Of a stretch of 64,000 bases of DNA, positions 5,509-60,310 are shown piece by piece. Source of the DNA: Acidobacteriota bacterium (GTDB taxonomy: Bacteria > Acidobacteriota > Blastocatellia > Chloracidobacteriales > JADJPF01). The notes below the pieces were generated by a model. The model searched no databases. It was not told the origin of the DNA and saw only the letters and a program-made list of their open reading frames with translations. Position numbers and translations under genes: made by a program. The stretch is taken from positions 518-64,517 of the forward strand of contig JACQZQ010000011.1 in NCBI GenBank assembly GCA_016213785.1, in the 5' to 3' direction. How positions within the stretch are numbered: position 1 is the first letter of the stretch; each line of letters starts with the position of its first letter.

Positions 5509-5614
5509 GATTTAGCTCTAAGAGGGCAAATGCTTTAAATACATCTATATTCAGTAACATATAGATATAAGTATTTGCATTCTGAATAGTTTCTAAGTAT
5601 TATAAATTTACTGT

Positions 5615-5944
5615 TTAGGTATTTAGCCTAGAGTCAATATCTTGATCTAGTTCTTGAATTGCATCAAGAATTTTGCCGAATTTCTGCCCAAAACTTGTTA
5701 GCTGATATTCTACTTTTGGTGGGGTTTCAGGGTAAACTTGTCTATCTATAATTCCATACCTAAGCAATTTTCTTAGTCTTTCATTAAGTACTTTAGTAGT
5801 TAGACCTATAATATGACGCTCAATCGCTCCAGGTCTACAAACTCCTTGTCGAATTGTTTGGAGCACAATTAACGACCATTTACAGCCAACAATGTCTTCT
5901 ATCATTTGGCTTGTAGATATTTTGTTTGTTTTATTTTTAGCCAT
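5615..5944 (-). CDS. HxlR-family transcriptional regulator
   Basis: CKWSLIVLQTI...TKVLNERLRKLLRYGIIDRQVYPETPPKVEYQLT matches the HxlR wHTH pattern. Confidence 0.9.
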   Translation of the reverse strand: MAKNKTNKISTSQMIEDIVGCKWSLIVLQTIRQGVCRPGAIERHIIGLTTKVLNERLRKLLRYGIIDRQVYPETPPKVEYQLTSFGQKFGKILDAIQELDQDIDSRLNT

Positions 5945-6082
5945 TTTTATTTAGTTGATTTTATTAAATTTGTACTAAAAAGTAAGTATCTTTCCGGTTT
6001 GTACGTACTTTTGTAATAGGTAGACTCCTGCTACTTTTCTATCACCCGCTTACAATTTTACATTAGTTTAGGAGAAAAAATC

Positions 6083-6319
6083 ATGAAATCAAAAGCTATT
6101 TTTTACCATGCAGGTTGTCCAGTTTGTGTAGAGGCAGAAACCCAATTAGCCTCAGCTTTAGATTCTGCTCGCTTTGAAGTAGAAGTTGTTCATCTAGGGC
6201 AAGAAAAAGCACGTGTTAGTGAAGCAGAAAAATATGGGGTAAAATCTGTCCCAGCTTTAGTTATGAATAACCAGGCTTTTCATATTAATTTTGGTGCAGA
6301 TTTATCTGTGTTGAAATAA
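6083..6319 (+). CDS. small thioredoxin-fold protein (CPVC motif)
   Basis: 78 aa with HAGCPVC near the N-terminus and VPALV later (cis-Pro region). It is divergent from the HxlR gene. Confidence 0.7.
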   Translation: MKSKAIFYHAGCPVCVEAETQLASALDSARFEVEVVHLGQEKARVSEAEKYGVKSVPALVMNNQAFHINFGADLSVLK

Positions 6320-6329
6320 AACAGAGCAG

Positions 6330-6373
6330 GGACAGAGTAGGGACAGAGACATAGCTCTGTCCCTACTCTGTCC
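6330..6373. terminator. bidirectional terminator hairpin
   Basis: Perfect 19-bp GC-containing stem (ggacagagtagggacagag / ctctgtccctactctgtcc) with the 6-nt loop acatag, between convergent genes. The 3' arm abuts the stop codon of the 6374..7381 gene. Confidence 0.7.
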
Positions 6374-49392: not shown

Positions 49393-49441
49393 AATATATT
49401 AGAAATTAAATTAAATATAAGTTCTTAATAAAGGGTTATTT

Positions 49442-50047
49442 ATGAGTTTATTTTTTAGATTTATTATGGTTTGCTTTTTACTACTAGTTTTAATTTTGCC
49501 TTTTAATAGCCAAGCACAAAATCATTTTCTAGAAACTCAAAGTAAAAATTATGTTACCCTTTCTGCTGGAATAGACCAACTTAAAGAACAATTTAATAGA
49601 GATCAAGGCAAAACAAGACTTTTAATGGTTCTTTCTCCTGGTTGAGGTGAATGCCTTGGGGGGGCTTCCCAAGTGACTAAAAAAGTACTTAAAACTATTA
49701 AAGATCCTAACTTAAGAGTTTATGTTGTCTGGCTACCAATCTTACGTAAAGATAACGAAGGGCGTGTTCCTAAAGCTGCTGCAACTGTTTCTGATATACG
49801 TGCCACGAATTATTGGGATGGGGAAAAAAAACTTGCTAGAGATTTTGCTGAAACTCTTGAATTTACTGATAAAAGCCAACCTGCTTGGGATATTTATTTA
49901 GTTTATGGAAAAGATACTAAATGGGAAACAACAGCACCTAAACCTAATTATTGGATGCATCAATTGGAAGATTTTCCAAAAGATAATAAACTAGACGCAA
50001 CAAAATTATCTAAGGAAATAGAAAGATATCTAACTACTAATGAATAA
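49442..50047 (+). CDS. candidate selenoprotein: secreted thioredoxin-fold protein with in-frame UGA (49643..49645) in a U-G-E-C motif
   Basis: ORFs 49442..49645 and 49673..50047 are in the same frame with only one stop (TGA) between them. Read-through gives ..RLLMVLSPG-U-GECLGGASQVTKKVLKTI..LRVYVVWLP.., a beta1/CxxC/alpha1/beta2 layout. The signal peptide is only on the upstream part. The second ORF has only a GTG start and no RBS. Confidence 0.55.
49655..49673 (+). promoter_or_regulatory. SECIS-like stem-loop downstream of the in-frame UGA
   Basis: cttggg / cccaag forms a 6-bp stem with the G-rich loop ggggctt. The stem starts 9 nt after the UGA and the loop starts 16 nt after it. The element is unusually GC-rich for this AT-rich DNA. 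Confidence 0.4.
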
Positions 50048-50152
50048 AAAGCCTAGAAACTTTCTAAAAAGCTATTAGTTTAATATCTAAAAAATACTGA
50101 ATAAATATGATAAACAATGCCCAGTGTTAATATACTGGGCAAATAAATTTTT

Positions 50153-53100
50153 ATGGGAAAACGCAAAGAAGAAGAGCTAGCAGCAAAATTAGCAGAATTA
50201 AGAAATTCAGAAACCTTTTCTTTGCTTAGCGCAACTGAAATGGTTGAGCAAATAGCTGCTTTTCTTGACCATGGGCTAATGAATGAAGCTATTGCTAAGC
50301 AACGTCGTTTGCCACCACCTCTAAACATAGAACAGGCTGTAGTTTATGCCCAGCTACGCTCAGATATTGCTAATCATTTTGCTAAACATGGTTATTATGC
50401 TGGTGTTTTAGACGTACTCCAACCTTATGATACAGTGCCTTCTAGAGTAAGACTACCTATAAAAGAAAGAGCTTTAATTAGCTTACAACTTGCTGAGGCC
50501 TACTCAGTTAATCATAATTATCCTTCTGCAATAGGTCTACTAAATGAATCTATTAAATATAGCACTCAATCAGGCGAAAAAAGTCTAGAGTCTAAAGCAC
50601 AGTATCATTTAGGGGCAGTATATTTTAACCTTGGTGAATATACTATAGCTCAAGATCACTTAAAACAAGCTCTTAGGCTTTTTAGTAAGCTAGGAGATCA
50701 TATTGGCGAAGCCCAAGCCTATCTTTATTTGGGACGGGTTTTACTTGAATTAGGCGAGTTTGATAAAAGCATAGAGATTGCAGAAAAAGCAATTAAAATT
50801 AGTACAGAAATTAATTTAGAAAGTATCCAAATACAGGCAAAAGTTCAAATTGGCACAGTCTGGCTTAGGCAAGGAAAAGTAAGAAACGCTATAGGTTTTT
50901 ATGAAATAGCATTAAAAAAATATGAGCAAGAAAATAAATCAAGCCTAGCAATTCAAACCTTTAATAACTTAGCTTATGGATTGATAATTAGTGGTAATTG
51001 GCTGCAAGCAGAGCATTTACTTGAAAAAAGCTTAACTCTAGCTCGTCAAAATCAAGATGATTATGCTGAAGCTTTTTCACTTGCTCAATTTGGCTTACTT
51101 TATAATTTAACAGGCCGTATTAACGAAGCTAAACCAACATTAAATTTTGCCTTAGAGCTATCTAAGCAATTTAGAGCTAAAGACTTAGAAAGCTTATCAG
51201 AAATTAACTTAGGTAAGCTATATTTATCTTTGGGTGAAAAAGCACTTGCTTTAACTCACTTAAAAGCTGGGATAGACATAGCCTTAACTATTAATCGTAT
51301 TGATTATGCAATAGAAGCAGAAATAGCTTTTATTTTGTTATGTTTAGAAGAGGGTAAATTAGTACAAGCTCAAAATGCCTTAGAACAAGCTTATGACTGG
51401 CTTAAAAAACAGAAAAATTTTTTACTAGAAGGAAAACTTATCTTTTTAGAAGCAAAACTAGCTTTTGAGAAAAAACAAGAAGCTTTAACTAAACTTAATC
51501 AAGCTTATGAAATTTTTGAAGTTTTTTCCTCGCCTTTGGAAAAAGCATTATGTTTATTTGAACGAGCACAAATATTAAAGACTAAGTTAGGGGCTAATAG
51601 AAAAATTTTTTCAGATTTAACACGTGCTCAAGATCTTTTTGAGCAAATAGGGGCTAAGCCGCTTTTAGAAAAAACAAATTATTTACTAAAAGAGTTATTT
51701 CCAGAAGCTAAAAATAATGAGATAAACTGTCTAAATAAAGAACTTATAGAAGAAAGAGAACAACTAACAAATCTCTTAAGAATTTCTTTAGATAAAGAAG
51801 AATTATTAAAAGAAATAGTCTTACTTTTACAAAAACAATCTCAAGCCGACCTTGTTGGAATTTTTGAGCTTAATAGCTTAGAAAACCAAGCTAAGTTAAT
51901 TTTTGCAACTAAAGACCTAGAGTTACTCACAAATGAACTTCAAAGACGTTTACAAGTTGCTTTATTAAATAAAAAAGTGGGCTGGATTGATGGCCGAAGT
52001 AAAGATGAACCCCTTTATTTAGCTTCGTTTACAAATAGCCCAGAAAAACCATTGATTTTACTTTTTTGGGGAATTTCACCAAAAATAGTTTTAGAGGAGT
52101 CTTTAGAGTCTTCTATTAATTTAGCTAAAGAAATATTTAATCTATCTAACTTAAAACCTGTGCTAGAACTAGAGCCAAGAATAGAAATTAAAGAAGAAAT
52201 TGAAATAGGTAAATTAAAGAATTTTAATAACTTACCAGAACTGGTTTATTCAAGCCGTAAAATGTCAGAGCTAATAGAACAAATTACTAGAATCCACTCT
52301 AGTGATTTAACAGTACTGATTACAGGTGAATCAGGAACAGGAAAAGACTTAATAGCAAAAGCAGTTCATTCTGTTAGTGAAAGACGTAATAGGCCATTTT
52401 CTCCTTTTAATTGTACTGCTACACCACAAGAAATTGTTGAGGCTCAGCTTTTTGGATATCGAAAAGGCGCTTTTACAGGTGCAAATATTGATTATGAAGG
52501 AGTAATTCGTGCTGTTGATGGTGGAACACTGCTACTTGATGAAATTGGAGATTTACGCCTAGATATTCAGCCCAAGTTACTACGCTTTTTACAGGATGGA
52601 GAAATTCAACCTATTGGTTATGCTAGACCTATTAGAGTAAATGTAAGAATAATTGCTAGTACTAATCGAGATTTAGAGAAAATGGTAGAAAAGGGCGAGT
52701 TTCGTGAAGATCTTTATCACCGGTTAAATATCTTAAGGCTTTTTGTATCGCCTTTAAGACAAAGACGTGAAGAGATTTTGCCACTAGCACAATATTTTCT
52801 TAAATTAAGCTGTGAACGTACAAATAAAAATCTAGCTTTTAGTCCTGAAATGTTAATGTTAATAGAATCTTATGATTGGCCTGGAAATATTCGTCAATTA
52901 AAAAATGAAATTGAGCGTATTGTAGCTTTTGCAAGCGAAAATGAAAAATTAGGGAAAAATCAACTTTCTCAAGAAATACTTCAAGCTACAGCAAATCTAA
53001 AACGAACAAGACAGTTATTAGAAACAACTCCAAATATCCAATTCCAAACAGGAACAAGTTTAGACGAAATTTTAATGCAGACTGAAAAACAAATTATTCA

Positions 53101-53212
53101 AAAAAGCTTAAAACAATGCCGTAATAATATCCGACAAACTGCTGCTTTATTAGGTATTTCTAGAAAAGGTTTATACGATAAAATAAAGCGTCTTAAAATT
53201 CGGTTGGCTTAG
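50153..53212 (+). CDS. sigma-54-dependent transcriptional activator with about 650-aa N-terminal TPR/GAF-like sensory region
   Basis: AAA+ core GESGTGKD, GAFTGA loop, DEIGD Walker B and the C-terminal Fis-type HTH (IRQTAALLGISRKGLYDKIKRL). Many TPR-like repeats are N-terminal. There is no REC domain. Confidence 0.85.
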   Translation: MGKRKEEELAAKLAELRNSETFSLLSATEMVEQIAAFLDHGLMNEAIAKQRRLPPPLNIEQAVVYAQLRSDIANHFAKHGYYAGVLDVLQPYDTVPSRVRLPIKERALISLQLAEAYSVNHNYPSAIGLLNESIKYSTQSGEKSLESKAQYHLGAVYFNLGEYTIAQDHLKQALRLFSKLGDHIGEAQAYLYLGRVLLELGEFDKSIEIAEKAIKISTEINLESIQIQAKVQIGTVWLRQGKVRNAIGFYEIALKKYEQENKSSLAIQTFNNLAYGLIISGNWLQAEHLLEKSLTLARQNQDDYAEAFSLAQFGLLYNLTGRINEAKPTLNFALELSKQFRAKDLESLSEINLGKLYLSLGEKALALTHLKAGIDIALTINRIDYAIEAEIAFILLCLEEGKLVQAQNALEQAYDWLKKQKNFLLEGKLIFLEAKLAFEKKQEALTKLNQAYEIFEVFSSPLEKALCLFERAQILKTKLGANRKIFSDLTRAQDLFEQIGAKPLLEKTNYLLKELFPEAKNNEINCLNKELIEEREQLTNLLRISLDKEELLKEIVLLLQKQSQADLVGIFELNSLENQAKLIFATKDLELLTNELQRRLQVALLNKKVGWIDGRSKDEPLYLASFTNSPEKPLILLFWGISPKIVLEESLESSINLAKEIFNLSNLKPVLELEPRIEIKEEIEIGKLKNFNNLPELVYSSRKMSELIEQITRIHSSDLTVLITGESGTGKDLIAKAVHSVSERRNRPFSPFNCTATPQEIVEAQLFGYRKGAFTGANIDYEGVIRAVDGGTLLLDEIGDLRLDIQPKLLRFLQDGEIQPIGYARPIRVNVRIIASTNRDLEKMVEKGEFREDLYHRLNILRLFVSPLRQRREEILPLAQYFLKLSCERTNKNLAFSPEMLMLIESYDWPGNIRQLKNEIERIVAFASENEKLGKNQLSQEILQATANLKRTRQLLETTPNIQFQTGTSLDEILMQTEKQIIQKSLKQCRNNIRQTAALLGISRKGLYDKIKRLKIRLA

Positions 53213-56812: not shown

Positions 56813-57601
56813 ATGGCCTTAGTGGGAGATCTAAAGGATCTTGCCCTAGTAGATATTATTCAAATTAACTGTATTGGACGTAATACGGCTCGTTTAACAG
56901 TGCATTATCCAACTGGGGATGGCGTGTTTTACTTTCAAGATGGTGATGTAGTAGATGCACGTTTTGGTGAACTATCGGGTATAGATGCTGTTTATCAAGC
57001 TCTACGTTATAGTGAAGGCAGTTTTCGCATTGATACAGGAATAGCTGCCCCAATGCGTACAATCTATGAACCTTGGGCTAACATCCTTATGGAAGGGATG
57101 AGAATTATTGATGAAGAGCGAGCAGGAATGATTCCTACTACTCCTGGCCTTACACCTGTTGGAGCAATACCTGGTATTAGTACTGGCACACCTTCAGGCG
57201 GAGTTGTAAGAGCAATAAACCCTTATCAAACTTTAGTCAATGATCTGCTTAAGATTAGAGGCGTAGAAGGTGCTCTAGCTACTTTAAGAGATGGTACTCT
57301 ACAAGCACATAGCAATATAAAAACGCCAGAAAAACTTGGGATGTTAATTGCTTTTACCGTCTATCATGGCGGACTTGCAGCTATTCCTGCTCGTATAGGA
57401 ATGATGAAGCGTATAGCTATTATCTCTGGTCAAAAGAAATTAATTATTTTTGATCAAGAAGACTTTTTAGCTGCTATTGAATGTGGTAGCGCTGTACGTT
57501 ATGAAACGATAAACCCATATATTGAGCGCGCTTTCCGTAAGATTCAAATGAGGCGCGGCCCTACTGGGACAGGCGTGTCCGGTCCTCTAACACAATTCTA
57601 A
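56813..57601 (+). CDS. PATAN (DUF4388)-like domain plus Roadblock/LC7-like domain protein
   Basis: N-terminus GDLKDLALVDIIQ...GVFYFQDGDVVDARFGELSGIDAVYQAL..GSFRI. Pro/Gly linker. C-terminus LKIRGVEGALATLRDGTLQAHS...LIIFDQEDFLAAIE is Roadblock-like. Confidence 0.65.
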   Translation: MALVGDLKDLALVDIIQINCIGRNTARLTVHYPTGDGVFYFQDGDVVDARFGELSGIDAVYQALRYSEGSFRIDTGIAAPMRTIYEPWANILMEGMRIIDEERAGMIPTTPGLTPVGAIPGISTGTPSGGVVRAINPYQTLVNDLLKIRGVEGALATLRDGTLQAHSNIKTPEKLGMLIAFTVYHGGLAAIPARIGMMKRIAIISGQKKLIIFDQEDFLAAIECGSAVRYETINPYIERAFRKIQMRRGPTGTGVSGPLTQF

Positions 57602-57637
57602 AGGTAGCGCTTAAGTTGTTGCGCAGATTAAGCTCTT

Positions 57638-58954
57638 ATGCACATTCCTAAAGGAAAGCCAGTCCATGAAAACCTTAAAACCTCTTACCTAAACGCCACT
57701 GCATTGTTGGCTGATCTTCAAATTGATAGCTTTACAGGCTACTTACAAGCTGTTTTTCCTCATAGTAAAGGCAATATTTTTTTAGCAAATGGAATAATAC
57801 TTAATGCTGTTGATGAAAGCTTAGACCGGCTTAGACGTGGTGAAGAAGCTATAGATGCAATATTACTTAGATCTAGTTCTCCTGATGGAAAAATATCTGT
57901 CTACTCTCATACATATAAAACCATTGAAGCTATTGCAGGCCGTATTGAAGGAGAAATAGTTTATCAAGCACTAGATAGCGATTTTACAGACTTAAAAAAA
58001 TTAGTAGAAAAACTTAAGCAACAAGATTCTTTAAGATTCTATATTGAAGTTGAATTTAGTGATTTTGGCGATGGAGTAATCTATGTAATTGATGGAGAAG
58101 TCGATGGAGTGCTATCATTAGCTTCAGGTGAGGTTATTGAAGGCTTAGCAGCTTATGAAAAGGTTTTAAGTCTTGTTTTAGAAAAATCAGCCACTTTTCA
58201 TGTTTATCGTTGCGCTAAAATAGTTATTAATCCACAATCAGATAATGTTTTATCTTTCCCTGAAGTAAGCTCAACAATAACTAAACTATCACCAAAAATT
58301 AACGAAGAACCTCTAGTTCAAATAGATCAAAAAGAAATAGTAGAAATAGTAGAAATTACTAGTAAAGAAGTAGGGATAGCAGAATCAGTAGAAGTAGCAG
58401 GAGTAGCACAAACACTAGAACCAACAGAATTAGAAGAAGAAATAAAAGAAGTAGAATCTCAAGACGTAAATGAAACTCCATCAGAAAAAGAATTACCAGT
58501 AGATAACAAAGAAGATCTTTCTCAAAAAAAATCAGAAGAACTATCGCCTATTGATGAAGACTATCAGACAATATTAGGTATAATGACAGAAATTATTCAA
58601 ATTGTAGAAAGAGTTTCTCTCTTAGTTAGTAAAGAAGCTAATTTTCCAGTTGCTTTTCGAAGCGGATTACTAAAAATTACTGAAGAATATCCAGTTTTTG
58701 ATCCTTTTGCAGAAGATTTTTCTTATCAAGATGGTAAAATCCATCTCACAACCCTTATACCAAAAGCTCTTTTAATAAATGGTTTAACTAAAGCCCTTAA
58801 ATATACTTTAGATGAATTGGTTCGTATGTCACCAAATTCTCAACTAAGAGAAAGAATAATAGGGGCATTACTACGCTTGGAACAGTTAAAACAAAGAGAA
58901 TTTGAAGTTTTTTCAATTTCTTCAGCTTTAGCTGAACTTATAACAATAGAATAA
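57638..58954 (+). CDS. protein with two PATAN-like blocks, acidic repeat linker and unassigned C-terminal domain
   Basis: LLADLQIDSFTGYLQAVF..GNIFLANGIILNAV...GEEAIDAIL, and a second block FYIEVEF..GVIYVIDGEVDGV...GLAAYEKVL. The linker is E/V/I-rich with an EIVEIVEI repeat. Confidence 0.5.
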   Translation: MHIPKGKPVHENLKTSYLNATALLADLQIDSFTGYLQAVFPHSKGNIFLANGIILNAVDESLDRLRRGEEAIDAILLRSSSPDGKISVYSHTYKTIEAIAGRIEGEIVYQALDSDFTDLKKLVEKLKQQDSLRFYIEVEFSDFGDGVIYVIDGEVDGVLSLASGEVIEGLAAYEKVLSLVLEKSATFHVYRCAKIVINPQSDNVLSFPEVSSTITKLSPKINEEPLVQIDQKEIVEIVEITSKEVGIAESVEVAGVAQTLEPTELEEEIKEVESQDVNETPSEKELPVDNKEDLSQKKSEELSPIDEDYQTILGIMTEIIQIVERVSLLVSKEANFPVAFRSGLLKITEEYPVFDPFAEDFSYQDGKIHLTTLIPKALLINGLTKALKYTLDELVRMSPNSQLRERIIGALLRLEQLKQREFEVFSISSALAELITIE

Positions 58955-58978
58955 TTTTCTAAAGAGAGGAACTAGACT

Positions 58979-59467
58979 GTGGGTAAAGCACATGAAATCT
59001 TCCTACAAGATATGTTACGTATCCAAGGCGTAAAAACTGCTGCACTAGTAAATTTTCGAGGAGAATTCTTACTCTCAGCAGGAGTATTTACTCCTAATGC
59101 ACAAATATCTAATCAATTAGGTACTTGTATAGTACAGTTAATAGCAACAGCCGAATATGTTCGAGGTCGCTCTGAAGAAGTGACTATGCTTTATTCTGAA
59201 GGCAGACTTTCAGCTTTTATTAATCTAGACTTATTAATAGATACTCCTTATGGCGCACAAGAGGTATTTTTACTAATTCTAAGTAGCGCAAATGTAAATT
59301 TACCTACTCTACGTATGACAGTAAAAGTAGCTTTAAGTAAGCTTAAACTAGATAAATCTGTAAGAGATTTAAGGATTAATGTTAGGGTTTATCCACAGAA
59401 TTTGCTTACCCGAGATCGTATGGATGAAACTAGCTGGCAGTTTGTAGAAGCAATAAGTCGTGGTTGA
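58979..59467 (+). CDS. stand-alone Roadblock/LC7-like protein
   Basis: LRIQGVKTAALVNFRGEFLLSAG pattern, 162 aa. GTG start follows gagagga. Confidence 0.55.
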   Translation: MGKAHEIFLQDMLRIQGVKTAALVNFRGEFLLSAGVFTPNAQISNQLGTCIVQLIATAEYVRGRSEEVTMLYSEGRLSAFINLDLLIDTPYGAQEVFLLILSSANVNLPTLRMTVKVALSKLKLDKSVRDLRINVRVYPQNLLTRDRMDETSWQFVEAISRG

Positions 59468-59509
59468 AAATTCTTAGCAGCATAAACTACAAGGTGAGAT
59501 TTAAATATC

Positions 59510-60310
59510 ATGTCAGATGCATTTTCTGGAAATTTATCGCAATTTAAACTTCTTGATATCTTACGACTCTTACACGCTAGTAATCGTACTGGCTTGTTAG
59601 AGCTTGAACACGAAGATGGGCATTTTGGTGAAATTTATTTTGTTAGCGGCCAAGCTACTCATGCCCTTTATGAAGAATACATAGGTGAGGAAGCTATCTA
59701 TGCACTTTTTTCTTGGATAGATGGAACATTTCGTTTTCGTAGTGGCGAAATGACAGATGAACAGACTACAATGCTAACTACAGAAGAAATACTAGGCGAA
59801 AGCGTTACTTATGCTGCTGATTGGGAAAGTGTTCGTCGTGTTATTCCTTCACGCAATACACTATTTAAACTCTCCTCTCGTCCAACTAAAGAATTTTCTC
59901 TTCGATCAGAGGATTGGGCAGTACTGCGTGAAGTAGATGGTGAAAAAAATGTTGGGGAAGTTGCTGACGCTACCCAATTAGGAGAGCTACAAGCTTCACG
60001 CATTCTAGTACGTTTATTTGACCTTGGTTTAATTGAATCGGCTGGTGAAGCTTCCTCACAACAATCTTATATAGAAGCTGTAGATGAAGCTATTCTAGAT
60101 CAAGTAGAAAGAGATCTAACTCTAGCCATAGGCCCTATGGGACCAATTGTTATTGATGATTGTGCTGAAATGCTAGGATTTAGCCGTAGCAATTTACCTA
60201 GGGATATGGTTCCATCTTTTATTGAAAGACTAGCAGAGGAAATCCCTGATAGCGACCGCCGTGTTCGTTTTCAAGAATCAATGTTAGAAATAATGAAACA
60301 GCTTTTCTAA
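59510..60310 (+). CDS. PATAN (DUF4388)-like domain protein with unassigned central and C-terminal domains
   Basis: GNLSQFKLLDILRLLHASNRTGLLELE...GEIYFVSGQATHA...GEEAIYALFSW.DGTFRF. The central segment DWAVLREVDGEKNVGEVA...LVRLFDLGLIE looks winged-helix-like. Confidence 0.65.
   Translation: MSDAFSGNLSQFKLLDILRLLHASNRTGLLELEHEDGHFGEIYFVSGQATHALYEEYIGEEAIYALFSWIDGTFRFRSGEMTDEQTTMLTTEEILGESVTYAADWESVRRVIPSRNTLFKLSSRPTKEFSLRSEDWAVLREVDGEKNVGEVADATQLGELQASRILVRLFDLGLIESAGEASSQQSYIEAVDEAILDQVERDLTLAIGPMGPIVIDDCAEMLGFSRSNLPRDMVPSFIERLAEEIPDSDRRVRFQESMLEIMKQLF

Follow-up and report, generated by a model that had tools for sequence, protein, structure and literature searches.

Positions 49442–50047 of the window, by which we mean the whole 64,000-nucleotide (nt) stretch of Acidobacteriota DNA analysed here, very probably form one gene in which an internal, in-frame UGA is decoded as selenocysteine (Sec). 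The predicted product is an exported thioredoxin-fold protein that carries Sec at the first position of a U-x-x-C redox motif. An ATG at 49442 opens an open reading frame (ORF) of 67 codons that is closed by TGA at 49643–49645, and past this TGA the same frame runs without a stop to TAA at 50045–50047, giving a readthrough product of 201 residues. Translation from the ATG yields MSLFFRFIMVCFLLLVLILPFNSQAQ...KTRLLMVLSPG, then the TGA, then GECLGGASQVTKKVLKTIKDPNLRVYVVWLP..., with the active-site motif S-P-G-[UGA]-G-E-C across the junction. The ORF list splits the locus into 49442–49645 (67 amino acids, aa) and 49673–50047 (124 aa, GTG start), both in one frame, and the sole start of the downstream ORF, GTG 49673, lies inside a hairpin that follows the UGA. 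An earlier reading of this DNA made from its letters alone (the sequence-only reading) had described two ORFs in one frame split only by this TGA, the second of them starting only at a GTG, and translation confirms both points. Its central proposal, one 201-aa selenoprotein in place of two genes, is supported by the TGA column, the Cys homologues and the comparative hairpin data. The gene has these parts:

49431–49435, + strand: Shine–Dalgarno-like AAGGG, 6 nt 5′ of the ATG, inferred by reading the sequence
49442–50047, + strand: proposed complete selenoprotein coding sequence, 201 residues with proposed Sec68 and stop TAA 50045–50047, from the single internal TGA and end-to-end alignment with Cys homologues
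49442–49516, + strand: predicted Sec-type signal peptide (Sec here denoting export), residues 1–25, with an S-Q-A↓Q cleavage motif, from the translation read by eye
49643–49645, + strand: in-frame UGA, proposed Sec codon (residue 68), with TGA kept at the column and opposite the first Cys of CxxC
49643–49654, + strand: U-G-E-C redox motif (UxxC), Sec68-Gly-Glu-Cys71, its second Cys invariant in all relatives
49655–49673, + strand: hairpin resembling a selenocysteine insertion sequence (SECIS), 7-base-pair (bp) stem CUUGGGG/UCCCAAG and 5-nt loop GGGCU, from folding and comparative data

The position of the UGA is conserved across phyla. A database search with the readthrough protein, U replaced by C, returned 13 homologues, every one of them called as N-terminally truncated, with called starts that fall a few residues past UxxC (for example, VCLRGAS... 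and MCRWGFS...). On three of the homologues' contigs an in-frame ORF of 59–61 aa lies just upstream and stops at exactly the window's column, readthrough there giving LLLLLAPS*YDCLGGAS, LLMLVDPT*GECLRGAS and LLLLLDPT*GVCLRGAS; the stop is TGA in each, and the relatives' DNA spans 34% to 65% GC. A one-genome-per-species scan yielded 18 loci, distributed over Acidobacteriota, Thermoanaerobaculia, Pyrinomonadaceae, Anaerolineales, Neomarinimicrobiota, Gaiellaceae, two Clostridia-labelled bins and one Allosphingosinicella, and the TGA-bearing relatives include Actinomycetota, Chloroflexota, Marinimicrobia, Acidobacteriota and other lineages. TGA occupies the column at 17 of the 18 genome loci, the Allosphingosinicella locus having TGC (D-P-A-C-A-L-C). 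Across the genome loci and 80 metagenome loci we counted 97 TGA, 2 TGC and no TAA or TAG, with four loci outside the count that did not match the search pattern.

Conservation extends to both sides of the UGA, following the pattern F-N-x-D-x-G-x-x-R-L-L...P-x-U-x-x-C-L-x-G-A, and every member keeps the U/C-x-x-C spacing. Against the 75%-identical relative L004, dN/dS is 0.35 over the 41 codons before the UGA and 0.09 over the 125 codons after it; the corresponding 3′ values against L005 and L001 are invalid, the ungapped alignment being broken by indels. The two closest relatives (L004 and L005, 75% and 56% identical) retain both the TGA and the hairpin. Neither a pseudogene nor a pair of independent genes accounts for a TGA kept at one column together with conservation of both halves. 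The bins that contain L004 and L005 bear the title 'uncultured Clostridia bacterium', a label that may be unreliable; the remaining relatives are almost all Acidobacteriota, Chloroflexota or similar.

Homologues with Cys in place of Sec span the site without interruption. By BLASTP, 160 residues of the window protein align with the Cys form P0162 at 47% identity (E = 4e-55), and the first Cys of S-P-T-C-P-E-C stands opposite residue 68. A profile built from the C-terminal halves matched 2078 clusters (50% identity representatives) at E ≤0.001, 1113 of them at ≤1e-10. In 120 of the top 150 clusters the match starts within the first ~18 residues, which indicates a product truncated at the UGA; the other 30 have an N-terminal extension, and those that we read carry ...L-L-S-P-T-C-P-x-C-x-x-G-A... 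at the aligned site. A second search seeded with Cys forms added 324 full-length Cys forms of ~200 aa, all named "hypothetical protein" and without a Pfam domain. Most sampled relatives are Sec forms, and Cys forms also exist. The family shares the signature motifs A-W-D-V-Y and P-x-P-x-[YF]-W-M-H-Q-L.

Some Sec forms have two domains, a ~190-aa N-terminal domain with no Pfam or NCBIfam match standing ahead of the UxxC domain, which places the UGA ~200 codons into a gene of 320–330 codons (L007 9521–10510 and L034 2509–3480, also L008–L010 and L036–L041; two-domain Sec forms occur in Thermoanaerobaculia). Two-domain Cys counterparts exist as well (P0091, P0098, P0111 and P0149; 37–41% identity), so Sec/Cys exchange appears, from these sequences, to have occurred in more than one sub-lineage. 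In L041 (380–1270), ~96 codons of the domain are duplicated internally, with TGA in frame in both copies (605 and 893); this may be a two-strain assembly chimera or a real partial duplication. P0048, P0067 and P0076 contain the domain in two or three copies.

The hairpin CUUGGGG/GGGCU/UCCCAAG starts 9 nt past the UGA and opens its loop 16 nt past it, with a folding free energy (ΔG) of −8.0 kcal/mol for the 19-mer. Published rules for bacterial SECIS elements (bSECIS) specify a loop of 3–9 nt, a stem of 4–16 bp, G in the first two loop positions, a spacing of 16–37 nt and ΔG ≤ −7.5 kcal/mol (PMC13188914), and the window hairpin falls within all four published constraints (7 bp, loop GGGCU, spacing 16, ΔG −8.0). 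Across the family the element occurs in two registers, with the loop either 16–17 nt or about 22 nt past the UGA. In the window-type register (12 distinct sequences) the stem columns 13–19/25–31 are 96% paired, versus 29–69% when the partner columns are slid, and at pair 16/28 eight sequences have C-G and four have G-C, while pair 15/29 changes once from U-A to G-C. In the second register (57 distinct sequences) the stem columns 20–25/29–34, with a loop of G-U-U or G-G-C, are 95% paired versus 32–56% slid, and pair 21/33 is C-G in 44, U-A in 6 and U-G in 6. Several of these stem-pair changes alter the amino acids encoded on both arms, such as G/Q to R/E.

Synonymous sites within the stem are likewise constrained. 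Among window-type sequences third positions carry 0 bits of entropy at stem codons +5 (CGG or GGG), +6 (GGG, 12 of 12) and +8 (TCC, 12 of 12), and Leu codon +4 is CTT in 10 of 12 (0.41 bits); at other four-fold-degenerate codons third-position entropy is 1.2–2.0 bits, and the window-type loop codon has 1.3 bits. For the second type, 64 of 68 sequences use GCC for Ala +7 (0.11 bits), versus 1.97 bits at Ala −13, and two stem codons of this type (type B) reach third-position entropies of up to 0.9 bits. The Cys form L105 encodes the same L-R-G-A-S-E residues as CTT CGT GGG GCA TCG GAA, without the hairpin (ΔG −2.9 kcal/mol), and mean ΔG is −10.4 kcal/mol in Sec forms versus −2.9 to −9.0 in five Cys forms. 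The hairpin's support is thus comparative rather than single-sequence. The sequence-only reading had placed this hairpin 9 nt past the UGA with its loop at 16 nt, and its position and form hold, whereas its distinctiveness as a single sequence does not survive comparison with shuffles. That reading had also looked to relatives for support, and there the UGA is kept by orthologues at 17 of the 18 genome loci and nearly all metagenome loci, P0162 and numerous further Cys forms run through both halves and have Cys in the UGA column, and the hairpin is retained with compensatory changes and frozen synonymous sites.

As a stand-in for the window protein we modelled P0025, a Cys homologue with 45% identity to it, in AlphaFold from a 121-sequence alignment. 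The mean pLDDT of the model is 87, rising to ~98 across residues 50–205, and it supersedes a single-sequence run of the same protein (pLDDT 39). The order of elements is a helix, strand 68–74, C78-x-x-C81 at the start of helix 79–93, strand 101–107 and, beyond it, helices alternating with strands; P176 of P0025, an invariant Pro ahead of strand 178–181, is a candidate cis-Pro from sequence and element order only. Foldseek searches against the PDB returned thioredoxin-fold proteins only, the best being ResA, pneumococcal Etrx-type lipoproteins, Mycobacterium tuberculosis DsbE, CcmG, Sco1/SenC and GPx-type proteins, at target-normalized TM scores of 0.6–0.69, identities of 10–17% and E values of about 3e-5 to 1e-3. 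A profile search of PDB sequences gave one marginal match (E = 0.009), to the strand 1–CxxC stretch of an archaeal protein disulfide oxidoreductase. P0025 is thus confidently predicted to adopt a thioredoxin fold with CxxC at the N terminus of helix 1 after strand 1, and on this model the family of the window protein is a distant, unnamed branch of the thioredoxin-fold superfamily. The β1/CxxC/α1/β2 layout that had been read from the letters is borne out by the model and by its ResA/TlpA-type matches.

The window protein begins with a putative signal peptide, comprising a charged n-region (MSLFFR), the hydrophobic core FIMVCFLLLVLILPF and S-Q-A↓Q with small residues at −3/−1, as judged by eye. 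Relatives have signal peptides, lipoboxes (LLAGC, LAAC) or N-terminal membrane anchors at the same place. Because the window protein and its relatives share such signals, the family is predicted to lie outside the cytoplasm, as do ResA, TlpA and CcmG.

These features suggest how the gene could work. Translation would start at ATG 49442, and when the ribosome meets UGA 49643 the hairpin at 49655–49673 would act as a bacterial SECIS. By analogy with known systems, and in keeping with the comparative data, it would recruit SelB with Sec-tRNA(Sec), and selenocysteine would be inserted in place of termination. The signal peptide would then carry the protein across the membrane, where the Sec68/Cys71 pair may cycle between selenol/thiol and selenenylsulfide and attack disulfides of partner proteins as a reductant or isomerase, like ResA, TlpA and CcmG. 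From fold and motif we infer that the protein is an extracytoplasmic selenol/thiol oxidoreductase; the pair might alternatively serve as a high-affinity ligand pair for thiophilic metals.

That alternative concerns function only. On this view the protein chiefly binds thiophilic metals such as Hg(II) or Cu(I) in the periplasm and hands them on, as a MerP analogue built on a thioredoxin fold and not as a disulfide oxidoreductase; we regard this view as possible though doubtful. It draws on the surroundings of relatives. A MerR-family regulator adjoins the gene at all five Cys-form loci examined, and at three of them the order is MerR, zf_CopZ (PF18423), the family gene and MerT (PF02411), followed by thioredoxin or AhpC-type genes. 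An Anaerolineales-type Sec clade has MerR, a CopZ-like gene, the Sec gene and an ABC transporter. Relatives with this conserved operon are:

L108, 5100–7724: MerR/CopZ-like order
L115, 57–3207: MerR/CopZ-like order
L028, 1111–3480: MerR/CopZ-like order
L014, 2680–6528: MerR/CopZ-like order

We saw no merA in the sequenced stretches of these operon loci. In P0024, P0179, P0193, P0224 and P0233, all of them Cys forms, the family domain is joined to a MerP-like HMA domain, and the 409-aa Cys form P0093 combines an NF049942 'DF family (seleno)protein' domain and a MerT-like Cys-Cys membrane segment with the family domain; Sco copper chaperones are also among the fold neighbours. The MerR–CopZ–MerT context and the fusions, as read from these sequences, suggest a metal-handling role for part of the family. 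Against such a role for the window protein, neither its gene nor its clade has a MerR, CopZ or MerT neighbour (13 clade loci, of which only 9 have at least 1.2 kb of upstream sequence), and the CxxC spacing is that of oxidoreductases and not the CxxxC plus His of Sco; the two functions, moreover, are not mutually exclusive. A bolder proposal, which we advance tentatively and judge rather unlikely, is that the family consists of unrecognized extracytoplasmic thioredoxin-fold proteins, mostly Sec forms among the sampled relatives, whose selenol–thiol pair is a periplasmic acceptor of thiophilic metals (Hg, Cu) that are passed to MerT-type transporters and CopZ-like cytoplasmic chaperones. The protein would then be a selenium-based replacement for MerP, with stand-alone copies, including that of the window, as its constitutive version.

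Several results weigh against our preferred interpretation, a single Sec-decoded gene for an extracytoplasmic oxidoreductase. Using E. coli SelA, SelB and SelD as tblastn queries, we did not find selA, selB or selD in the window (64 kb) or in the related loci (747 kb), which together were the scope of the search, and ARAGORN found no tRNA-Sec in the window or the related loci (115 loci); the window contains no tRNA gene at all. Taken singly, the window hairpin is not significant against dinucleotide shuffles (z = −0.05 for 48 nt, −0.2 for 25 nt and −1.1 for 19 nt), and the 48-nt stretch has a minimum-energy structure other than the hairpin. Only 37 of 78 distinct Sec-form hairpins in the family pass a strict, bulge-free implementation of the bSECIS rules, as do 0 of 5 Cys forms and 5.7% of control codon positions in the same genes. 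A relaxed version that allowed any surrounding structure was dropped: all 78 Sec forms pass it, but so do 50% of control positions. Rfam, at gathering and E-value thresholds, gave nothing relevant, and no match to a general bacterial SECIS was seen. The structural model comes from a 45%-identical Cys homologue and not from the window protein, and the neighbours of the window gene (aspartate kinase and a sigma-54 activator) are uninformative on function.

The failure to find the machinery in the searched sequence and the unremarkable single-sequence hairpin would also suit readthrough of the UGA without Sec, whether by near-cognate insertion of Cys or Trp or by lineage-specific reassignment, for example after loss of the Sec machinery. 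We consider this quite improbable. The site aligns with a catalytic Cys, a classic Sec/Cys pair, and the hairpin is held by compensatory changes and synonymous-site constraint only in TGA-bearing genes, as expected for SelB-dependent decoding and not for leaky readthrough; the persistence of TGA and hairpin in the 75%- and 56%-identical relatives argues the same way. TGA closes at least seven other window ORFs of at least 120 aa, among them those of carA, pdxA, an ECF sigma factor and a YigZ-like protein, which shows that TGA has not been reassigned here, and the statement in the sequence-only reading that TGA is otherwise an ordinary stop here stands. Window ORFs of at least 200 aa stop with TAA in 23 cases, TAG in 12 and TGA in 3. 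A scan of the window found the TGA at 49643 to be its only credible ORF–TGA–ORF arrangement, and a scan of close relatives for other genes of this kind found none credible. Selenoproteins are already known from Acidobacteria, Chloroflexi and Actinobacteria (PMC1794560).

It is scarcely credible that the TGA is a real stop, whether the locus would then be a pseudogene with a nonsense codon or encode two products, a secreted peptide of 67 aa and a protein of 124 aa from GTG 49673: gene callers annotate the locus in this way everywhere, a G-run at 49659–49665, 7 nt 5′ of the GTG, could mimic a ribosome-binding site and TGA is a normal stop elsewhere in the window, but a pseudogene would not retain TGA in 97 copies from different phyla without TAA or TAG ever taking its place, both halves are under purifying selection (dN/dS <0.4 on each side), relatives share no conserved start past the site (callers choose M, V or L at varying positions), the model has a single thioredoxin domain running across the site, strand 1 on its N-terminal side and helix 1 on its C-terminal side, and the Cys homologues are continuous across it.

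The window gene lies between an aspartate kinase gene and a TPR/sigma-54 activator gene, among housekeeping genes (carA, pdxA and ruvA) and in no informative operon. A scan for terminator patterns found two sites versus 0.6 expected in shuffles, one of them 3′ of the gene:

50118–50141, + strand: terminator-like hairpin, 10 pairs with a T-rich tail, 3′ of the gene, a consensus match only

This hairpin separates the selenoprotein gene from that of the sigma-54 activator (50153–53212) and has a mirror-image match on the minus strand. The activator is a 1019-aa sigma-54-dependent protein whose N-terminal region is long and TPR/MalT-like, and after it come RuvA, several TPR proteins and two proteins with a PatA_N domain; the stretches concerned are 50153–53212 and 56813–60310. 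L005 has the same downstream sigma-54 activator as the window. In L002 (7512–11538) the selenoprotein gene begins at the stop codon of a peptidase S9/Tricorn-like gene, with MsrB (SelR) nearby on the opposite strand. Elsewhere, 5509–6373 (~865 nt) holds no ORF of at least 110 aa in an otherwise tightly packed window, and it has no Rfam match at gathering thresholds.

No Pfam or NCBIfam model names the family. In searches of Pfam and NCBIfam release 20, neither the window protein nor five other Sec clades nor the family domain of Cys forms had a significant match, and the only trace of a selenoprotein family there was SaoT, at E = 0.17 in one relative; the sequence-only reading had likewise been unable to assign a name. 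We found no description of the family in the literature. Of the 119 prokaryotic selenoprotein families tabulated in a 2026 review, almost all are defined by a Pfam or NCBIfam model (PMC13188914, Table 1). For the families keyed to CDD alone (cd02966, thiol-disulfide isomerase-like/UGC-TlpA; and cd02970), identity is made less likely by the finding that none of AhpC-TSA, Redoxin and Thioredoxin_8 gives a signal, a comparison by way of these related domains and not a direct one.

The consequences for annotation are substantial. More than 2000 clusters (50% identity) are mostly deposited as N-terminally truncated "hypothetical proteins" of ~120 aa from which signal peptide, strand 1 and active site are all missing, and reading the UGA as Sec restores the real protein. 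It also adds an exported UxxC thioredoxin-fold selenoprotein family that we did not find in the 2026 inventory of 119 families, the CDD-keyed ones having been compared through the missing signal of related domains. Acidobacteriota and Chloroflexota, two soil lineages with little-studied selenium use, form the centre of the family's distribution. The excess of Sec over Cys forms among near relatives suggests a catalytic or binding advantage of selenium outside the cytoplasm, and the MerR–CopZ–MerT context and HMA/MerT fusions of relatives may link selenium use to the handling of thiophilic metals.

Among known systems, the hairpin is best set beside the bacterial SECIS consensus (the bSECISearch model, of the E. 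coli fdhF type). It resembles that consensus in its 7-bp stem and its 5-nt apical loop opening with GG 16 nt after the UGA, and differs in that it is very short and shows neither a clear lower stem nor a bulged U, and in the use of two registers within the family.

MerP shares with the family a periplasmic location and a CxxC pair, and some relatives of the window gene stand just upstream of merT behind MerR or are fused to a MerP-like HMA domain. MerP, however, has a ferredoxin-like HMA fold where the window family is predicted to be thioredoxin-like, and the window gene lies outside such an operon; the resemblance concerns a possible role and not family membership. Membership in MerP/HMA was rejected, the ferredoxin-like β-α-β-β-α-β fold with GMxCxxC being absent from the family domain and HMA occurring only as a separate fused domain in some relatives. 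Membership in Sco1/SenC was likewise rejected: in place of CxxxC plus a distal His, every member has U/C-x-x-C, and the conserved His lies in W-M-H-Q-L.

The best structural matches are with the ResA/TlpA/CcmG (DsbE) oxidoreductases (2f9s, 1su9, 4evm, 1lu4, 1kng and 3or5), though at Foldseek E values of only about 1e-4 to 1e-5. These proteins share the xxC motif at the start of helix 1 after strand 1 and are also exported or membrane-anchored. The window family differs in having no Pfam AhpC-TSA, Redoxin or Thioredoxin_8 match, in the replacement of the first Cys by Sec in most sampled members and in signature motifs of its own. Its best match to the NCBIfam DsbE model, in one relative only, has E = 0.009 and 15 bits against a cut-off of 359, and hhalign of a TlpA-like neighbour protein with the family gives a probability of 2%; membership in the TlpA/ResA/DsbE-like sequence family was rejected, no model matching significantly.

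With the published UxxC thioredoxin-fold selenoproteins (Sec-thioredoxin, Prx-like, DsbA-like, thiol:disulfide interchange protein, SaoT and others; PMC13188914) the family shares a UGA at the first Cys of CxxC, Cys homologues and a hairpin right after the UGA. The Pfam and NCBIfam models of those families do not match it, and in the window family Sec forms exceed Cys forms among near relatives, as the 120 of 150 top clusters truncated at the site indicate. The window gene thus belongs to a large, so far misannotated family of the UxxC thioredoxin-fold selenoprotein type, with standard recoding and no new mechanism.

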